IMG/VR virus record: IMGVR_UViG_2703718672_000013
Length of the DNA: 12,078 nt
Direction: 5' to 3' (one strand)
From: a virus
Lineage: Duplodnaviria; Heunggongvirae; Uroviricota; Caudoviricetes
Within the stretch, counting starts at the first letter, position 1; every line of letters begins with the position of its first letter. The position numbers and the translations under genes are program-made. The notes beneath the pieces are model-generated. The model ran no database searches and was not told where the DNA came from. It saw only the letters and a program-made list of their open reading frames with translations. Positions 2,499-11,994 of the stretch are shown piece after piece.

Positions 2499-2690
2499 TT
2501 AAAGTCCTGCCGGTATTTCGTTATTATTAGTGTGAGTAGTTTTATCTACCGGATAACAGTTACCGGGAATTTTTTGTTCTGCTGCTGCAGCCATGCATTC
2601 TTTCATTGAACCGTATAAGCCAGTCACCAGCTCAAGAGATTCGCCGGAAACAAGATAAACTGTCAGAACGAGTGCAAATGTTGTATTCAT
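2499..2690 (-). CDS. YdfD-like small protein (63 aa) with hydrophobic N-terminal segment; Qin-prophage YdfD family, reported lysis-inducing
   Basis: ATG at 2690 overlaps the upstream TGA (ATGA coupling); AAGGA Shine-Dalgarno; N-terminus MNTTFALVLTVYLVSGESL is signal/TM-like; sits directly after the DicB-like gene as ydfD does in Qin. Confidence 0.6.
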   Translation of the reverse strand: MNTTFALVLTVYLVSGESLELVTGLYGSMKECMAAAAEQKIPGNCYPVDKTTHTNNNEIPAGL

Positions 2691-2875
2691 TGTTTATATC
2701 CTTTTTGCAGCAGGTCCAGACGAGCCAGCATTGAAGGAATGCATACTTCATTTAACAGGTCCTGCTCGAGTTTTCTCTGCTTAATGGCGTCTTCAATAAA
2801 TGTTTTGTCTCCAGTGATAACGCCAATTTCGAAACGAAGTTCAGACGTGCTGGCATTACATGATAACTTTTCCAT
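2687..2875 (-). CDS. dicB: DicB-like cell division inhibitor (62 aa)
   Basis: Internal ATG at 2875 with GAGGA 7 nt upstream (the track ORF begins at an upstream TTG). Product MEKLSCNASTSELRFEIGVITGDKTFIEDAIKQRKLEQDLLNEVCIPSMLARLDLLQKGYKQ matches remembered E. coli DicB (62 aa; EIGV, EDAI-KRK, SMLARL motifs). About 180 nt downstream of the DicF-like element. Confidence 0.75.
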   Translation of the reverse strand: MEKLSCNASTSELRFEIGVITGDKTFIEDAIKQRKLEQDLLNEVCIPSMLARLDLLQKGYKQ

Positions 2876-3054: not shown

Positions 3055-3113
3055 AAAAAAGGGCGGCAGAGCAGTTACGGAGTAAAACTGATACCGCCAA
3101 ATGTCACCAGAAT
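3055..3113 (-). ncRNA. dicF: DicF-like small RNA (ftsZ-targeting sRNA family of Qin/Rac-type prophages)
   Basis: Minus-strand sequence ATTCTGGTGACATTTGGCGGTATCAGTTTTACTCCGTAACTGCTCTGCCGCCCTTTTTT is near-identical to my recollection of E. coli DicF, ending in a U-run; located immediately upstream of the DicB-like gene in the same orientation. Confidence 0.7.
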
Positions 3114-3671: not shown

Positions 3672-4210
3672 CTATTGTTGAACTGGATTAAACCAGTAAT
3701 TCTCTATTGCTCTTATTGTTACCATCGGATGATTGCCGGGGGTTATTTTAAGTTCGGGAGGAAAAGGCTCTCCATCAGCAGCCATCATTGAGTATGTGAA
3801 ATCCGCCGACGCAGTCCCTTTCATGATAATTCCGAATTTTTCAAGTAATGAGAGCAGTTCCGGTAATCCTGTGTCATCTGAATAACTTTCCTCATAGAAA
3901 GAAGCGATTGCCGCAGGAGATGACAGTTCTCGCTCTGCAATTTTTTTGTAGTTTTCCAGAATTCTTTTTTTGAATACTTTTCCTCGACATGAAAACCCAT
4001 CACCGAGGCAATCCGCTTTGCAGTTTCTTCAGTATTCTGGTTGTTTGTTACCGAAACAGAGTACAATCCGGTAAACGCATCGCGCACATTACGAGCCATA
4101 TTATCAATGTATTTCTTCGTTGCAGATTCTAATTCAACTTCGTTCAGACGTTGGTGAAGTGCATGTGCTGCAATTTCCTGGATTTCTTTTAGTAAATCTT
4201 TAAATTCCAT
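3672..4210 (-). pseudogene. Hypothetical leftward-operon gene disrupted by a frameshift in an A7 homopolymer (T-run 3965-3971 on plus strand); N-terminal about 80 codons in one frame, about 95 further codons in the -1 frame
   Basis: Track ORF 3821..4210 turns low-complexity after ...MGFHVEEKYS; the -1 frame from the A-run gives a protein-like continuation (KKRILENYKKIAERELSSPAAIASFYEESYSDDTGLPELLSLLEKFGII...NYWFNPVQQ) to a TAG at 3672. ATG at 4210 follows the upstream gene stop by 12 nt. Confidence 0.5.
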
Positions 4211-4221
4211 CTTTAACTCCG

Positions 4222-4350
4222 TTAGTCGTTAGATTTTGCCGAACTGGAAAGCGCCTGTTTAAACTCACTGAAGCTGAGAGCTTCCTCGCCTTCGGCAAGG
4301 CCTTCGAAGTATTCTTCGTAAGCCTTTTCCATGATTGTGTCGAAATCCAT
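4222..4350 (-). CDS. YdfB/YdaG-like small protein (42 aa)
   Basis: Own translation: MDFDTIMEKAYEEYFEGLAEGEEALSFSEFKQALSSSAKSND; ATG at 4350 follows the upstream TGA by one base; size and position match ydfB (Qin) / ydaG (Rac). Below the track's length cutoff. Confidence 0.6.
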   Translation of the reverse strand: MDFDTIMEKAYEEYFEGLAEGEEALSFSEFKQALSSSAKSND

Positions 4351-4351
4351 A

Positions 4352-4507
4352 TCACTCACCTGAGTTTCTTTCCAGCCAGCGACGGGCACCATTTTCGGTT
4401 TTAAACGTTTTGCTTTTGGTATACGTCATCGCGGTGAATGTACCGTCCTGGTTGGGAAACACGCCGTACACCAGAGATTCGTTGTTGCCAAGATCGATAG
4501 TATCCAT
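4352..4507 (-). CDS. YdfA/YdaF-like DUF1391 protein (51 aa)
   Basis: ATG at 4507 with GAGG 6 nt upstream; MDTIDLGNNESLVYGVFPNQDGTFTAMTYTKSKTFKTENGARRWLERNSGE resembles the 51-aa YdfA/YdaF family; first gene downstream of the OL-like site. The track ORF begins at an upstream alternative start. Confidence 0.65.
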   Translation of the reverse strand: MDTIDLGNNESLVYGVFPNQDGTFTAMTYTKSKTFKTENGARRWLERNSGE

Positions 4508-4693
4508 GTTGACCTCATTTCCCCTTAACGCCGGGTAGCGGAACAAAAACCTGCTGCATAGTTATTAAAGTTGAACCCTGCCGTCATGTTCATACGCCTC
4601 GGGCTGGCTACTTACCCCCTGACCACTGCTTGGTAACTCGAAGTATTGCCCGGCGTTCTGTGGGGCGGGGTGGGTGGTTGGTGTATGTAATCT

Positions 4694-4733
4694 ACAATTA
4701 AAAACTGTTTTTGTGTCAACAGTTTTTAATTGT
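4694..4733. promoter_or_regulatory. OL-like operator: perfect 16-bp inverted repeat (ACAATTAAAAACTGTT / AACAGTTTTTAATTGT) with 8-bp spacer; a consensus TTGACA on the minus strand lies in the spacer
   Basis: Palindrome read directly in the sequence; shares the AAAAACTGT...ACAGTTTTT core with the palindrome at 5730-5766; lies between the repressor-TA operon terminator and the leftward operon. Confidence 0.6.
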
Positions 4734-4741
4734 TGTTTTGG

Positions 4742-4768
4742 GCAAAAAAATCCCTCGAAAGAGGGAGT
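4742..4768 (-). terminator. Intrinsic terminator downstream of the ParE-like toxin gene
   Basis: Minus strand reads a 6-bp stem TCCCTC / GAGGGA with 4-nt loop followed by a 7-U run (plus-strand A-run 4744-4750), 17 nt after the toxin stop. Confidence 0.6.
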
Positions 4769-4784
4769 ATGAAAATTGTTCAAC

Positions 4785-5072
4785 TCAGATAGAGAAGGGA
4801 AATTGTCGCCGAGAATGTGTCACGCTTACAATCTCAATGCTTGAAGCAGCTACTCTGTACAGGATTATGTAGTTAGGGTGGGTCACGATCTCTCTCAATC
4901 CAGAAACCCGTTCGCTTGGTGGATATAAGTACGGATGCTCAGATAGAGGTAATACCGATGTTTCAATGCGTATTTTTAGTCTACGTGCTGCCGGTGGGTT
5001 CTCCTTGGCGATGTAAGTTATGATCTGGCGCAAATCATCGCGAGCAGACGGTAGCCATAAAATGGGTAACAT
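4785..5072 (-). CDS. parE: ParE/RelE-superfamily type II toxin (95 aa)
   Basis: ParE-like pattern W..SA..DL..I..YIA..NP.AA......E....L...P..G........LRE......YI.LYRV....IEIV.V.H.RR; start overlaps the upstream stop (TAATG). Confidence 0.78.
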   Translation of the reverse strand: MLPILWLPSARDDLRQIITYIAKENPPAARRLKIRIETSVLPLSEHPYLYPPSERVSGLREIVTHPNYIILYRVAASSIEIVSVTHSRRQFPFSI

Positions 5073-5263
5073 TACTCGCTCTTGTTAGTTACAGCAATTT
5101 GAGCAATAAGATTTTCCATTTCAGCCATTACCTCGTCATGTGGAATTGCGGGGCGAGTGTCTGCAAGGCTTGACGTTACTTTAGTGCGCAACCATTCGTT
5201 GTAACTGTTTTCTTGTTCGGTAGTTTCGAATTCTGAAACTATCGGAGAAAGGGCTGTACCCAT
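5072..5263 (-). CDS. Small antitoxin (63 aa), PaaA-like partner of the ParE-family toxin
   Basis: GAGGAG Shine-Dalgarno 7 nt upstream of ATG at 5263; 1-nt stop/start overlap with the toxin; 63 aa, acidic; resembles my recollection of PaaA2 from E. coli O157 three-component paaR-paaA-parE systems. Confidence 0.68.
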   Translation of the reverse strand: MGTALSPIVSEFETTEQENSYNEWLRTKVTSSLADTRPAIPHDEVMAEMENLIAQIAVTNKSE

Positions 5264-5290
5264 GGCATAACTCCTCTTCTTGTACTGTGG

Positions 5291-5692
5291 TCACGCCCGG
5301 CGGCTTTTTTGTGCCGCCAGCCACCTAGCAATGGTTTCTTCCATTGATTTTTTCTTGTCTTTGATTTCTTGAAGCATTTTTTCTTGGTCTTCCTCAGGAA
5401 ACGCACTAAAAGCTTGGAGCAGTTCGCGTTGGCGAGGACCAATTTTCATCGTGTCAGGGGTGAAAATTTGCTCACACTCTTCAGGAGGCAATAAAAACCA
5501 ATGCAATGGATGCCCTGAAACCTCAACCAGTTTATCCAAACTTGAGGCTTTAGGTGTAGCCTTACCGCTGACCCATTGTTGAACAGTTTGTTGTGTCACA
5601 CCAATTCTACGGGCAAGCTCAGCCTGGCTCCATCCAGTTTCCTGAAGAAGCTTGCTGATTCTGTACATAGATACTTCTAGGGCGCTCATCAT
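5291..5692 (-). CDS. cI/RacR-like prophage repressor, HTH (XRE family); probably also the transcriptional regulator (PaaR-like) of the downstream toxin-antitoxin pair
   Basis: HTH segment LLQETGWSQAELARRIGVTQQTVQQWVSG; divergent from the Cro-like gene across a palindromic operator; ends 27 nt before the antitoxin. Start uncertain (5692, 5689 or 5668). Confidence 0.8.
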   Translation of the reverse strand: MMSALEVSMYRISKLLQETGWSQAELARRIGVTQQTVQQWVSGKATPKASSLDKLVEVSGHPLHWFLLPPEECEQIFTPDTMKIGPRQRELLQAFSAFPEEDQEKMLQEIKDKKKSMEETIARWLAAQKSRRA

Positions 5693-5729
5693 TATTCAAT
5701 TTTACAGGTAAATACTGTTAAAAGCATCA

Positions 5730-5766
5730 CAATAAAAAACTGTTGATTGCATACAGTTTTTTATTG
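5730..5766. promoter_or_regulatory. OR-like operator: perfect 14-bp inverted repeat (CAATAAAAAACTGT / ACAGTTTTTTATTG) with 9-bp spacer, in the divergent repressor/cro intergenic region; candidate -10 TATAGT at 5778-5783 for the rightward promoter
   Basis: Palindrome read directly in the sequence; same half-site core as the 4694-4733 site; a further ACTGTT copy at 5714-5719. Confidence 0.6.
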
Positions 5767-5800
5767 TAGGCTTTGCTTATAGTTTTTAGAGGAGGGCAAA

Positions 5801-6073
5801 ATGCTAGATAGCACTCGCGAAAAAATTAGGCAGAAATACACTCAGGCTGAAATAGGTCGTTATATGGGGGTCGCTCAACAGACTGTTTGGCAATGGTTTA
5901 GCTTTGGCGTTCCCCCAAAGCAGGTAATTCCGTTATGCCAACTAATGAAGTGGGAAGTTACCCCGCATGAAATCCGCCCAGATATTTATCCTAACCCAAC
6001 CGACGGTTTACCTGTTGGATGTAAGGTTAACACATCAAATGCGCCGGAGTTGATTCATGAAAATCAAGCATGA
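5801..6073 (+). CDS. Cro-like / YdaS-family HTH regulator (90 aa)
   Basis: Strong GAGGAGG Shine-Dalgarno (5789-5795); HTH TQAEIGRYMGVAQQTVWQW; divergent from the repressor; position equivalent to cro/ydaS. Confidence 0.75.
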   Translation: MLDSTREKIRQKYTQAEIGRYMGVAQQTVWQWFSFGVPPKQVIPLCQLMKWEVTPHEIRPDIYPNPTDGLPVGCKVNTSNAPELIHENQA

Positions 6074-6482
6074 ACACATCCGCATGGCGATGAATGCCTG
6101 GGCGCATCCGGACGGCGAAAAAGTACCGGCTGCGAAAATTACCAAAGCGTATTTCGAGCTGGGAATGACGTTCCCGGAACTGTATGACGACAGCCATCCG
6201 GAAGCCATGGCTCGCAATACTCAGAAAATTTTCCGCTGGGTGGAGAAAGACACTCCTGATGCGGTTAAAAAAATTCAGGCGTTGTTACCAGCGATCGAAA
6301 AAGCGATGCCGCCTCCGCTGGTGGCCCGAATGCGCAGCCACAGTTCCGCTTATTTTCGGGAGTTGGTAGAGACGAAGGAACGGCTGGTGAAAGATATTGA
6401 TGATTTCGTTGCATCAGCGATCGTTCTGTTCGATCAGATGAATCGTGGTGGCCCGGCAGGAAACACTCTGGCTGTGCATTAA
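6057..6482 (+). CDS. YdaT-family protein (141 aa; cII-position protein of Rac-like prophages)
   Basis: N-terminus MKIKHEHI is the remembered YdaT start; 17-nt overlap with the Cro-like gene; comparable size. Confidence 0.72.
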   Translation: MKIKHEHIRMAMNAWAHPDGEKVPAAKITKAYFELGMTFPELYDDSHPEAMARNTQKIFRWVEKDTPDAVKKIQALLPAIEKAMPPPLVARMRSHSSAYFRELVETKERLVKDIDDFVASAIVLFDQMNRGGPAGNTLAVH

Positions 6483-6495
6483 TTGGGTAATAAAT

Positions 6496-7005
6496 ATGAG
6501 TAATGACAAAAAATTGACACTGAGCGTTTACGAAAACAGTCCGCACATCTGGCGTGGCGGTTTATCTGATGTGGAGCTGGCAGAGTGGTTGATACATAAA
6601 GCTAATGCGCTGCTCTGGCGTTTGTCAGCCAGAGAACAGCGCAAGGAAACCAGAATAAAGCTGGCTGATGCAGAAGCGTGTGCCGGGCTTATTGAGGATT
6701 ATACAAATCTTGGTATTTCTTCAGCAGAGAGTGATCCCATTCAGCCTCTGAGCAGGGAGTCAATCCAGCACGCTGGTTGTATGGCACATCTTGTAACTGC
6801 TCGTCAACATGAGGTGGGTATTGGATCACTTCCGGCGGGATATTCGCTGATTCCAGAGCTGGTTGAAGCAAGAAAATCAGTTCAGAAAAAGAGAGATGAC
6901 GCACTTCAATTATTGAGAGAGCACTATGGCGCGATACCAGAATGCGAACAGCGTCGATACCCTGAAGGTTATGAATGGATGCAGTCTCTTTTTGAAGTTC
7001 GCTAA
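6496..7005 (+). CDS. Hypothetical protein (169 aa from ATG 6496; alternative GTG start at 6445)
   Basis: Same orientation as flanking early genes; protein-like composition; no family recognised; weak Shine-Dalgarno. Confidence 0.45.
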   Translation: MSNDKKLTLSVYENSPHIWRGGLSDVELAEWLIHKANALLWRLSAREQRKETRIKLADAEACAGLIEDYTNLGISSAESDPIQPLSRESIQHAGCMAHLVTARQHEVGIGSLPAGYSLIPELVEARKSVQKKRDDALQLLREHYGAIPECEQRRYPEGYEWMQSLFEVR

Positions 7006-7222
7006 TCAATATGTCGAGACGAAGGTATGTTTCGGCGCGCAGCCAGGCTCTGTAATCCGGGAGCATTTCGGGGCTGTTACACCAGCGGTTTGTTGCTGCA
7101 ACATTTAATACATGAGCCTGATAAAGGCTTTTCAAAAAATACATGTCGAACCTCCTCTGGTTCTGTCGATTGGGAACCACAGATTATATCCGGAGGAAGG
7201 TTCGGCACCAGATGAGGTAGCC

Positions 7223-9583: not shown

Positions 9584-9653
9584 NNNNNNNNNNNNNNNNN
9601 NNNNNNNNNNNNNNNNNNNNNNNNNNNNNNNNNNNNNNNNNNNNNNNNNNNNN
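9584..9653. other. Assembly gap (70 N)
   Basis: Run of n characters. Confidence 0.99.
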
Positions 9654-10460: not shown

Positions 10461-11234
10461 TTATATGCTGAAATGAATAATGCTATTCCAGAGTGCAGCA
10501 GAGAAAGTCTCCTGATGATTGAGCTCTGGAAATTGTACAATAGAAAAATTACTGTATTTTTCTGTCAAAATATTTCTCAAAACAGATTCCGCTTTGATGG
10601 CTTCAGGATATAAAGATGCGGAGTAATCAAGGCTAAGATTTCCGTTAAGCAAGCATATACTTTTAGTGTGCTTTGATTCTGATATATCATCTTTAATTAT
10701 CTTGATGATTCTTTCATTCTGCCATAGAAGTGATGGTGCAGATATATAATAATAGTTAAAGCATGAATTATTTTTTAAGCAATCAAGCACAAAAATAGCA
10801 CCTAGCGAGTGCCCCCATATACCGATTCTGGAACTGTTCGGAGCAATAGTACTAACCCATGGCATGATCTGAGTTAGTAATAATTCTCGGAAAGACTGGC
10901 TTCCTCCACCAGTAAAGTAGATCCATGCTGGTTTAGAGTTATCAACAATAGCATTTTCACCATCAGGAGTATAATCGTAAGCACGGCGATGAATGCTAAG
11001 GTTATTCCAAGATTCATAACCAAGTGTAACTAACACTGGTGGATTGGGTAGTGCATCAATAACAGGCAGAATATCAGAAATGTAATTGTTGGCACTATTC
11101 CCATCAAGTATATAAAGAGTTGCATTATTTTTTTTAATGTTTTTTGGAGTAAAAATACATATTTTATATTTGGTGTCATGGTTAATTGAGTTAAATATGC
11201 GTGTTTGACAATGAATGTCCATATGTTTAGTCAT
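10461..11234 (-). CDS. Alpha/beta-hydrolase, putative esterase (esterase-D/IroE/Fes-like fold) in an AT-rich island
   Basis: 257-aa ORF; nucleophile elbow G-H-S-L-G (GIWGHSLGAIFVLD), upstream LYILDGNS and GGGS motifs, C-terminal His (LNHQETF); GGGGAG Shine-Dalgarno; N/I/K/S-rich composition consistent with foreign origin. Confidence 0.7.
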   Translation of the reverse strand: MTKHMDIHCQTRIFNSINHDTKYKICIFTPKNIKKNNATLYILDGNSANNYISDILPVIDALPNPPVLVTLGYESWNNLSIHRRAYDYTPDGENAIVDNSKPAWIYFTGGGSQSFRELLLTQIMPWVSTIAPNSSRIGIWGHSLGAIFVLDCLKNNSCFNYYYISAPSLLWQNERIIKIIKDDISESKHTKSICLLNGNLSLDYSASLYPEAIKAESVLRNILTEKYSNFSIVQFPELNHQETFSAALWNSIIHFSI

Positions 11235-11781
11235 GCGTTCTCCCCATGAGCATTAAAGGATGCTTAAGATATGCTATGTCACTGATAAAAAATTTGTTGT
11301 GTGTGTTTAGTTATTTTATCTACCTCCATTATGATTTAAGACTGATATATGTTATCAGCAAAGGTACATCGTTATTATTTTACCTGTCAATACATTTGAT
11401 ATTGATTATCGTTTACATCGCTTGCTTAGGAAATTGAAGGCAGGTAACTATCATGTCAATGAACTAACCCACAGTCTAACGTACTTCTTTCCCCAATCAC
11501 CAACAACCAAATTCCTGTTATCACCACTGGGATTTTGGCGCAACTTCATGGTGCAGAGGTAAATAGCATCAAGCAAAATCTCTTTTTCCGTTGTTGTCCT
11601 TATGGGACGTCTGTCTTTCTGACCGATTTCATATTGGCGAGGTAATGGGAAGTTAAGTAGAATAGCTGCGGGTGCTTGAGGCTATCTGCCTCGGGCATGA
11701 ACACCAACGGCAGATAGAGAAAAGCCCCAGTTAACATTACGCGTCCTGCAAGACGCCTAACATTAATCTGAGGCTCAATCT

Positions 11782-11994
11782 ATGAACGGCAAATCTAGGT
11801 TAGCCTCTTACGTGCCGAAAGGCAAGGAGAAGCAGGCTATGAAGCAGCAAAAGGCGATGTTAATCGCCCTGATCGTCATCTGTTTAACCGTCATAGTGAC
11901 GGCACTGGTAACGAGGAAAGACCTCTGCGAGGTACGAGTCCGAACCGGCCAGACGGAGGTCGCTGTCTTCACAGCTTACGAACCTGAGGAGTAA
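11782..11994 (+). CDS. mok-like overlapping reading frame of a hok/sok-type type I toxin locus
   Basis: 70-aa ORF that contains the hok-like frame, the arrangement of mok/hok; GAGG upstream of ATG 11782. Confidence 0.5.
   Translation: MNGKSRLASYVPKGKEKQAMKQQKAMLIALIVICLTVIVTALVTRKDLCEVRVRTGQTEVAVFTAYEPEE
11839..11994 (+). CDS. hok: Hok/Gef-family type I toxin (51 aa membrane peptide)
   Basis: MKQQKAMLIALIVICLTVIVTALVTRKDLCEVRVRTGQTEVAVFTAYEPEE matches the Hok family signature (LTRKSLCEIR...EVAAF.AYE) as I recall it; a 9-bp hairpin lies in the leader (11682-11717). Confidence 0.78.
   Translation: MKQQKAMLIALIVICLTVIVTALVTRKDLCEVRVRTGQTEVAVFTAYEPEE

Follow-up and report, generated by a model that had tools for sequence, protein, structure and literature searches.

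The immunity region of a 12,078-nucleotide stretch of Caudoviricetes DNA (IMG/VR record IMGVR_UViG_2703718672_000013; hereafter, the window) was found to carry a compact minus-strand operon encoding a repressor, an antitoxin and a toxin. In all probability, this locus is paaR1-paaA1-parE1, a three-component type II toxin–antitoxin (TA) operon of the defective lambdoid prophage Sp4/CP-933M, with PaaR1 as a CI-like repressor and the TA pair in an addiction role. The operon itself is already known. It was reportedly named by Hallez et al. in 2010 (Mol Microbiol 76:719), as paaR1-paaA1-parE1 of the O157:H7 prophage CP-933M/Sp4, and detailed genetic and structural work is available on its paralogue. 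This paralogue, paaR2-paaA2-parE2 of prophage CP-933P, is described in Jurenas et al. 2021 (PMC8630535) and Prolic-Kalinsek et al. 2023 (PMC9986795), with structures 5CW7, 5CZE, 5CZF, and 3ZBE. An original prediction, made from the letters of the window alone, had read the three genes as a tightly coupled repressor–antitoxin–ParE operon in the slot that rexAB occupies in lambda, and had likened them to the paaR-paaA-parE systems of O157 prophages. These claims were borne out by the analysis described below, and the raw-sequence reading recovered the correct gene content, operators, terminator, and published analogy.

The prophage was identified by comparison of the whole window with the E. coli O157:H7 Sakai reference, to which it is 99.99% identical in the segment annotated as "prophage Sp4, lambda-like phage". 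The counterparts of the toxin, antitoxin, and repressor genes are ECs_1067 ("plasmid stabilization system protein"), ECs_1068, and ECs_1069 ("phage repressor protein"), respectively, and those of the neighboring ydaS-like and ydaT-like genes are ECs_1070 and ECs_1071. Many E. coli O157:H7 chromosomes were 100% identical over the 2-kb region of the operon, and in strain F6667 the region lies inside a lambdoid prophage integrated beside yccA. We take Sp4 of Sakai to be the counterpart of CP-933M of EDL933 in the two O157 genome annotations. CP-933M was stated to carry a homologue of paaR2-paaA2-parE2 by Jurenas et al. 2021 (PMC8630535). A passage of a review summarizing Hallez 2010 describes two paralogous O157 systems, in which PaaA1 and ParE2 show no cross-neutralization, and attributes to the same study ParE toxicity and specific neutralization by the cognate PaaA for both systems (PMC4803016). 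The locus was assigned the name paaR1-paaA1-parE1 because the window matches Sp4, a homologue is stated for CP-933M (PMC8630535), and two paralogues are described (PMC4803016).

The three open reading frames (ORFs), of 133, 63, and 95 codons, are tightly packed on the minus strand. The stop codon of paaA1 overlaps the start codon of parE1 by one base (TAATG, 5074-5070), an arrangement by which the two genes are predicted to be translationally coupled. The gap between paaR1 and paaA1 is 27 nucleotides (nt) long and contains a GAGGAG Shine-Dalgarno sequence; no promoter-like or terminator-like site was found on its coding strand. No internal terminator was detected on the coding strand of the three-gene operon, the only one lying past parE1, where the hairpin begins 18 nt beyond the stop codon. 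Co-transcription of the three genes is therefore compatible with the sequence. The original prediction had also placed the operon between an OR-like palindrome upstream and a terminator plus an OL-like palindrome downstream; all three elements are present, but the OL palindrome (4689-4738) falls just outside the left boundary, 4742, drawn for the module.

For comparison, a CP-933P-type locus was taken from O55:H7 and ST131 genomes, and two further E. coli alleles were included (four loci in all). The CP-933P-type regulator starts with MQKKE, the experimentally determined N-terminus of PaaR2. The paaR-paaA junction was kept in the four heteroimmune alleles, and three of the four have a terminator in this place after parE, with differing stem sequences. 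In allele L003, the hairpin and T-run are found at this position with the stem lengthened to 8 bp, and in allele L004 the T-run is at the same position with a different hairpin sequence. A GC hairpin (GGCGGC-N8-GCCGCC, 5299-5318) was also observed in the last codons of paaR1, and each of the four allele types has an equivalent. Because the conserved AAQKxRRA codons could account for the hairpin, we do not assign it a regulatory role. An Rfam search of 4300-5900 gave no match, even at E ≤ 1.

The assignment of the TA pair was supported by the comparison with PaaR2, PaaA2, and ParE2 that the original prediction had proposed as a check. A search of the PDB with ParE1 returned ParE2 of E. coli O157:H7 (5cw7_B, E=3e-36; 5czf_C, E=5e-35), with 67% identity over 92 residues, and a search with PaaA1 returned PaaA2 (3zbe, E=1.4e-20), with 62% identity; ParE2 (5CW7/5CZE/5CZF) and PaaA2 (3ZBE) are thus the closest solved relatives. 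PaaA1 scored 68 bits against the Pfam PaaA2 family PF21217, a "stability determinant" family (cutoff 27), and 92 bits against NCBIfam NF050103 (cutoff 50). The Pfam scan of PaaA1 revealed no domain other than PaaA2 and, in particular, no DNA-binding domain match. PaaA was described as an unstable antitoxin without a DNA-binding domain, which sequesters ParE and is degraded by ClpAP and ClpXP (PMC8630535).

The repressor is homologous to PaaR2 over part of its length. PaaR1 and PaaR2 are 37% identical overall, and the similarity is confined to the C-terminal ~45 residues (PaaR1 ELLQAFSAFPEEDQ...ARWLAAQKSRRA aligned with PaaR2 ELLQIFSAFPEDEQ...ARWIAAQKCRRA). The helix-turn-helix (HTH) of PaaR1 spans roughly residues 11-67 and is similar to the 434 repressor, while residues ~85-133 form a conserved part common to PaaR2 and DicA; the PDB contains no protein related in sequence to the PaaR C-terminal part. 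PaaR1 is 23% identical to K-12 DicA, with an LL..F.A.P motif conserved, and the DicA model NF007257 (NCBIfam) aligned residues 11-130 of PaaR1 with positions 9-131 of its 135 (E=8.4e-14; 51.5 bits, under the 101-bit cutoff). Because the C-terminal part aligns with K-12 DicA and the DicA model, though under its cutoff, covers PaaR1, both PaaR repressors are classed by sequence as probably DicA-like (HTH plus short helical C-terminus), not CI/LexA-like. Among the 18 Pfam matches of PaaR1, which is just 133 residues long, there was no Peptidase_S24 (LexA-type) domain. The absence of a peptidase domain from the Sp4 repressor was noted by Asadulghani et al. 2009 (PMC2669165), and PaaR2 was likewise reported to lack an S24 peptidase domain and not to be SOS-cleavable (PMC8630535). 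The original description of the gene as cI-like fits the N-terminal HTH and the OR/OL layout, but not the family: PaaR1 is a functional analogue of CI, and not a member of the CI/LexA family.

Expression of paaR1 is probably leaderless, by analogy with paaR2 and lambda cI. No Shine-Dalgarno sequence precedes the ATG, and a putative −10 hexamer lies 6 nt upstream of it; the TAAAAT-N6-ATG geometry is the same as that of GATAAT-N6-ATG in the CP-933P-type allele L002. The leaderless start of paaR2 was mapped by 5′ RACE (PMC8630535).

The OR and OL palindromes are 94% alike, and no other perfect inverted repeats with closely spaced arms of 10 nt or more exist in the window. Dinucleotide shuffles yielded a mean of 0.175 such repeats for 10-nt arms and 0.015 for 12-nt arms, which places OL and OR beyond chance. 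At OR, half-site-like repeats 25-26 bp to either side of the central palindrome extend the element to a region comparable to the stretch of ~78 bp protected by PaaR2 (PMC8630535). The −35 elements of the candidate PL and PR promoters sit in the centers of the OL and OR palindromes, that in OL being a perfect TTGACA. Among the E. coli alleles, the operator sequences change together with the HTH of the repressor and the type of cro: AAACTGT-N9-ACAGTTT palindromes are found here and in the 98%-identical allele L003 (arms kept, spacer mutated), ATAGCA-N4-TGCTAT palindromes in allele L004, and the published GTTTAGTAA repeats in CP-933P-type alleles (PMC8630535). This co-variation is good indirect evidence on which the palindromes are read as probable PaaR1/YdaS operators.

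Divergent from paaR1 lie the genes for the predicted Cro and CII analogues. The YdaS-like protein is presumed immunity-specific, because it is just 23% identical to the CP-933P YdaS, and the YdaT-like protein is 86% identical to the CP-933P-type YdaT. The predicted YdaT binding site, which spans the ydaS stop and the ydaT start, is the only zero-mismatch match in the window to the published recognition sequence. Every retrieved locus whose YdaT is of the CP-933P type had the site at this junction; L003, whose YdaT differs, did not. In CP-933P, the operator OM and PRE933P, a YdaT-activated alternative start for the repressor operon, lie at the equivalent place (PMC9986795, PMC8630535).

A sliding identity plot of the alleles mapped an immunity-specific segment, from ~6050 at the ydaS/ydaT junction, through OR, to the middle of paaR at ~5400-5430. 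The paaR C-terminus, paaA, and parE are common to the alleles at 64-90% identity, the OL zone (~4700-4780) is again allele-specific, and heteroimmune alleles show 90-100% conservation over the non-coding leader downstream of OL (4547-4690). By its pattern of identity, the region has the form of a classic lambdoid mosaic with a predicted junction inside paaR near 5400-5430. Because the repressor HTH and the operators differ, Sp4 and CP-933P are predicted to be heteroimmune, the Sp4 copy being a heteroimmune allele relative to CP-933P. As a separate observation, the leader was 91-97% identical in about ten sequenced E. coli phages and had no Rfam match. It could serve the leftward operon as a nutL-like or leader element; a structured RNA in this interval was considered and dropped, since the leader was not more structured than shuffles (z=+1.3).

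Of 5426 complete E. coli genomes, 833 had the TA pair, in allele classes of 100%, ~85%, ~80%, and ~67% DNA identity. In each of the four inspected loci, the pair immediately follows a DicA-like repressor gene, with ydaS/ydaT-type genes on the opposite side. One sequenced Escherichia phage, Evi, likewise carries the paaR2-type module. When the segment coding for the PaaR C-terminus was searched for in E. coli genomes, close alleles only were returned, from 510 genomes, a result that is uninformative on TA-less repressors. Beyond E. coli, a scan of one genome per species with exact peptide patterns, which is not exhaustive, detected PaaA-ParE pairs in Bartonella, Sphingomonas, Sphingobium, Paracoccus, Rhodocyclaceae, and others, none of which had a PaaR-like gene upstream. 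These PaaR-less pairs are consistent with the capture of a two-gene cassette by a lambdoid immunity region, as was suggested for the insertion of such a cassette in the published work (PMC8630535). In Bartonella spp. (loci L010, L012, L013, L016, and L019), the pairs are ~60% identical to the E. coli pairs and lack an upstream PaaR; an XRE-type HTH gene found a few hundred bases away is unrelated. Several toxin genes were frameshifted or truncated in L014, L016, L019, and L024.

From these features, and from the CP-933P paralogue, a mechanism can be proposed for the Sp4 copy. In the CP-933P system, the parts of CI, Cro, and CII are played by PaaR2, YdaS, and YdaT, respectively; the TA pair is found in the place of rexAB, and one repressor serves as both lysogeny repressor and TA regulator (PMC8630535). 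The same double duty, which the original prediction had put forward, would by this analogy fall to PaaR1. In the role of lambda CI, PaaR1 would bind the AAACTGT/ACAGTTT palindromes, shutting off the divergent ydaS (Cro-like)/ydaT (CII-like) operon from OR and the leftward ydfA-dicF-dicB operon from OL, and would tune its own, probably leaderless, transcript, which would also carry paaA1 and parE1 and end at 4766-4741. YdaS would compete for the same operators, and YdaT, bound at 6050-6067, could drive an alternative PRE-like leftward transcript into the operon. PaaA1, which would be protease-labile and is without a DNA-binding domain, would neutralize ParE1 by direct binding, and ParE1 would be a stable ParE-type toxin, probably acting on topoisomerases. 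Cells that lose or replace the immunity region would lose their supply of antitoxin and be poisoned, so that the prophage segment would be stabilized. Loss of the paralogous locus was shown to free the toxin, leading to ClpXP/ClpAP-dependent post-segregational killing and to stabilization of a mini-F (PMC8630535).

Several points weigh against this interpretation. PaaR1 and PaaR2 have unrelated HTHs and operators, so that we infer the PaaR1 binding sites, as also the leaderless expression and the promoter positions of the Sp4 copy, from the sequence. A consensus sigma-70 promoter scan gave no match at OR or OL, and the PR and PL positions are tentative because the scan did not call them. The name paaR1-paaA1-parE1 was assigned through secondary sources and the equivalence of Sp4 and CP-933M. 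Finally, ParE2 was set free in neither of the two transcriptional states, "lysogenic" and "lytic", and was active only upon loss of the locus (PMC8630535), and any role beyond plasmid-type addiction is a proposal. The suggestion, also part of the original prediction, that toxin release is tied to induction is unsupported, because the paralogue's two states did not free the toxin and the repressor, having no peptidase domain, is not SOS-cleavable.

Other explanations were considered for the toxin and for its link to the repressor. Instead of poisoning DNA topology in the manner of ParE, the 95-residue protein could be an mRNA endonuclease of the ribosome-dependent RelE type. ParE1 barely passes the cutoff of the NCBIfam subfamily model RelE_StbE, TIGR02385 (28.4 bits, cutoff 27.9), RefSeq labels the antitoxin "RelB family", and a direct target that is not identified for ParE2 leaves room for such an activity (PMC8630535). 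However, ParE1 is just 21% identical to K-12 RelE, and in the alignment it ends shortly past the conserved Arg, before the C-terminal helix that bears the catalytic Tyr87 of the RelE segment Arg81/Tyr87. The lack of this helix therefore favors a ParE-type activity, as judged by alignment. The 67% identity to ParE2, which induces SOS upon overexpression and colocalizes with the nucleoid (PMC8630535), speaks in the same direction, and a RelE-type activity is considered very unlikely. More improbable still, and close to dismissal, is an accidental juxtaposition, in which an autonomous paaA-parE cassette with its own regulation would lie beside a prophage repressor gene that takes no part in TA control. 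The pairs without an upstream PaaR-like gene in Bartonella, Sphingomonas, Paracoccus, and others do indicate that the pair can stand alone and was probably captured. Against this stand the gap of only 27 nt, free of promoter- or terminator-like sites on the coding strand, the lack in PaaA of a DNA-binding domain for autoregulation, the retention of the same junction in four heteroimmune alleles, and the co-transcription of the three genes and their control by PaaR2, reported for the paralogue (PMC8630535, PMC4803016).

Two further proposals concern what the TA pair does for the lysogen, beyond the addiction role of paaR1-paaA1-parE1. Abortive infection is a known effect of several type II TA systems, and the pair could be a RexAB-like superinfection-exclusion or abortive-infection module, in which infection disturbs the supply or stability of PaaA1, and freed ParE1 kills or arrests the lysogen before the invader replicates. 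Its slot between the repressor gene and terminator/OL, its expression from the lysogenic promoter, and the frequency of the module in E. coli, as well as its presence in phage Evi, would fit such a role. It is nevertheless judged unlikely: neither toxin nor antitoxin matched any of the PADLOC defense models, neither is related in sequence to RexA or RexB, the paralogue toxin was silent in both immunity states, and the consulted papers report no phage-exclusion data. The repressor did match PADLOC models such as RmrA and capH, but through its HTH only, and these matches are generic. A related idea is that the pair polices immunity-region exchange or heteroimmune superinfection, as a Rex-like or anti-recombination device, and that the conserved PaaR C-terminus is functionally coupled to PaaA-ParE. 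Behind it is the observation that, in E. coli, the paaA-parE cassette is always accompanied by a conserved C-terminal half of the DicA-like repressor, whereas the HTH half is exchanged together with the operators and the cro analogue. This idea is a doubtful one, with a low but appreciable chance of being right. An anti-recombination role was already proposed by Jurenas et al. 2021 (PMC8630535); if the idea is true, its novelty is limited to the domain-level coupling of PaaR and the phage-exclusion role.

Gene content, homologies, operators, terminator, YdaT site, and the identity with Sp4 were established here for the window itself (Table 1). To our knowledge, the operator palindromes, the conserved YdaT site, the leaderless geometry, and the mosaic junction inside paaR have not been described explicitly for the Sp4 copy, and the advance they represent is incremental.

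Table 1. Coordinates of the paaR1-paaA1-parE1 operon, its control elements, and other features of the window.
Feature	Position	Strand	Details
parE1	4785-5072	-	ParE-family toxin, 95 aa, ECs_1067; Pfam ParE_toxin PF05016, E=2.9e-17
paaA1	5072-5263	-	PaaA-family antitoxin, 63 aa, ECs_1068; Pfam PaaA2 PF21217, E=5.6e-19
paaR1	5291-5692	-	DicA-like HTH immunity repressor, 133 aa, ECs_1069; HTH_3 (Cro-C1-type), E=2.3e-12
Putative PRM-like −10 hexamer TAAAAT	5699-5704	-	6 nt upstream of paaR1 ATG; read from sequence
Intrinsic terminator	4741-4766	-	TCCCTC-TTTC-GAGGGA, then T7; hairpin 4766-4751, T-run tail to 4741
OL-like operator palindrome	4689-4738	.	AATCTACAATTAAAAACTGTT-N8-AACAGTTTTTAATTGTTGTTT; 21-nt arms, 90% complementary
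OR central palindrome	5729-5767	.	ACAATAAAAAACTGT-N9-ACAGTTTTTTATTGT; 15-nt arms, 100% complementary
OR-like operator region	5704-5787	.	Central palindrome; half-site-like repeats 5704-5719 and 5773-5787
Tentative PL promoter	TTGACA 4719-4714, N19, TAGATT 4694-4689	-	Leftward, for ydfA-dicF-dicB operon; by eye and analogy
Tentative PR promoter	TTGATT 5743-5748, N18, TAGGCT 5767-5772	+	By eye and analogy
ydaS-like gene (Cro analogue)	5801-6073	+	90 aa, ECs_1070; Pfam YdaS_toxin, E=8e-10; PHROG 35 transcriptional repressor, E=9e-29
Predicted YdaT binding site	6050-6067	.	TTGATT-N6-AATCAA
ydaT-like gene (CII analogue)	6057-6482	+	141 aa, ECs_1071; Pfam YdaT_toxin, E=1.2e-9; PHROG 163 CII-like activator, E=4.3e-46
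DUF1482 gene	2499-2690		Qin dicB operon homologue
dicB	2687-2875		Qin dicB operon homologue
DicF small RNA	3061-3112	-	Rfam RF00039, 76.9 bits
129-aa ORF	3821-4210		Qin dicB operon homologue
ydfA/DUF1391	4352-4546		Qin dicB operon homologue
163-aa ORF	6689-7180	-	"ECs1072 family phage-associated protein" in RefSeq (shorter start there)
70 N	9584-9653		Interrupts DUF1627-family gene
257-aa ORF	10461-11234	-	Alpha/beta hydrolase in O157 annotations
hok/sok type I TA locus	11670-11994	+	sok RNA RF01794, 105.6 bits, 11670-11844

Elsewhere in the window, a homologue of the Qin dicB operon runs leftward from OL, in the order ydfA, ydfB, the 129-aa ORF, DicF, dicB, and the DUF1482 gene. The 163-aa ORF separates ydaT from the replication genes, with a partial overlap into the start of a rightward replication-protein ORF. 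The 257-aa ORF is on the strand opposite to that of the replication and late-regulatory genes around it, and looks AT-rich, like a moron. The run of 70 N was taken to be a masked or unresolved stretch, and not a biological one, because the Sakai sequence at this place is 249 bp long. A Hok-like ORF, hokD in O157 annotations, ends at 11994, and the window therefore holds, in the hok/sok locus, a second, unrelated TA system.

The layout of the operon can be compared with three known systems. As in lambda cI-rexA-rexB, the repressor gene comes first and is followed by two accessory, lysogen-expressed genes on the same PRM-type transcript, with a terminator, analogous to lambda t_imm, before OL/PL. 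In both, the operon is divergent from the cro-cII analogues and the repressor has an N-terminal HTH and operators at OR and OL, in a CI-type arrangement; the repressor is probably leaderless in the Sp4 copy, as in lambda. Unlike lambda CI, however, the Sp4 repressor lacks an S24 autocleavage domain, and its accessory genes form a TA pair without homology to RexA or RexB, whereas lambda Rex provides exclusion of an ion-channel type. The resemblance to RexAB is positional only. In the dicA-dicC-dicB region of the K-12 prophage Qin, as in Sp4, a DicA-type repressor gene is divergent from a cro-like gene, followed by operators and a ydfA-ydfB-(ydfC)-dicF-dicB operon. In Qin, dicA is directly followed by the operator region and ydfA, whereas in the Sp4 copy the paaA-parE cassette and the terminator lie between the repressor gene and OL.

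The closest counterpart is paaR2-paaA2-parE2 of CP-933P/Sp12. The two differ in the PaaR N-terminal HTH and YdaS, which are unrelated, and in their operators (AAACTGT-N9-ACAGTTT here, GTTTAGTAA there), and the antitoxins give no cross-protection, according to the review passage cited above (PMC4803016). Identity ranges from 86% for YdaT, 67% for ParE, and 62% for PaaA, to 37% for PaaR and 23% for YdaS. Gene order, orientation, and the place between the cro/cII analogues and OL/PL are the same in both, as are the −10-N6-ATG geometry, the YdaT operator at the ydaS/ydaT junction, and the conserved ~45 C-terminal residues of PaaR.

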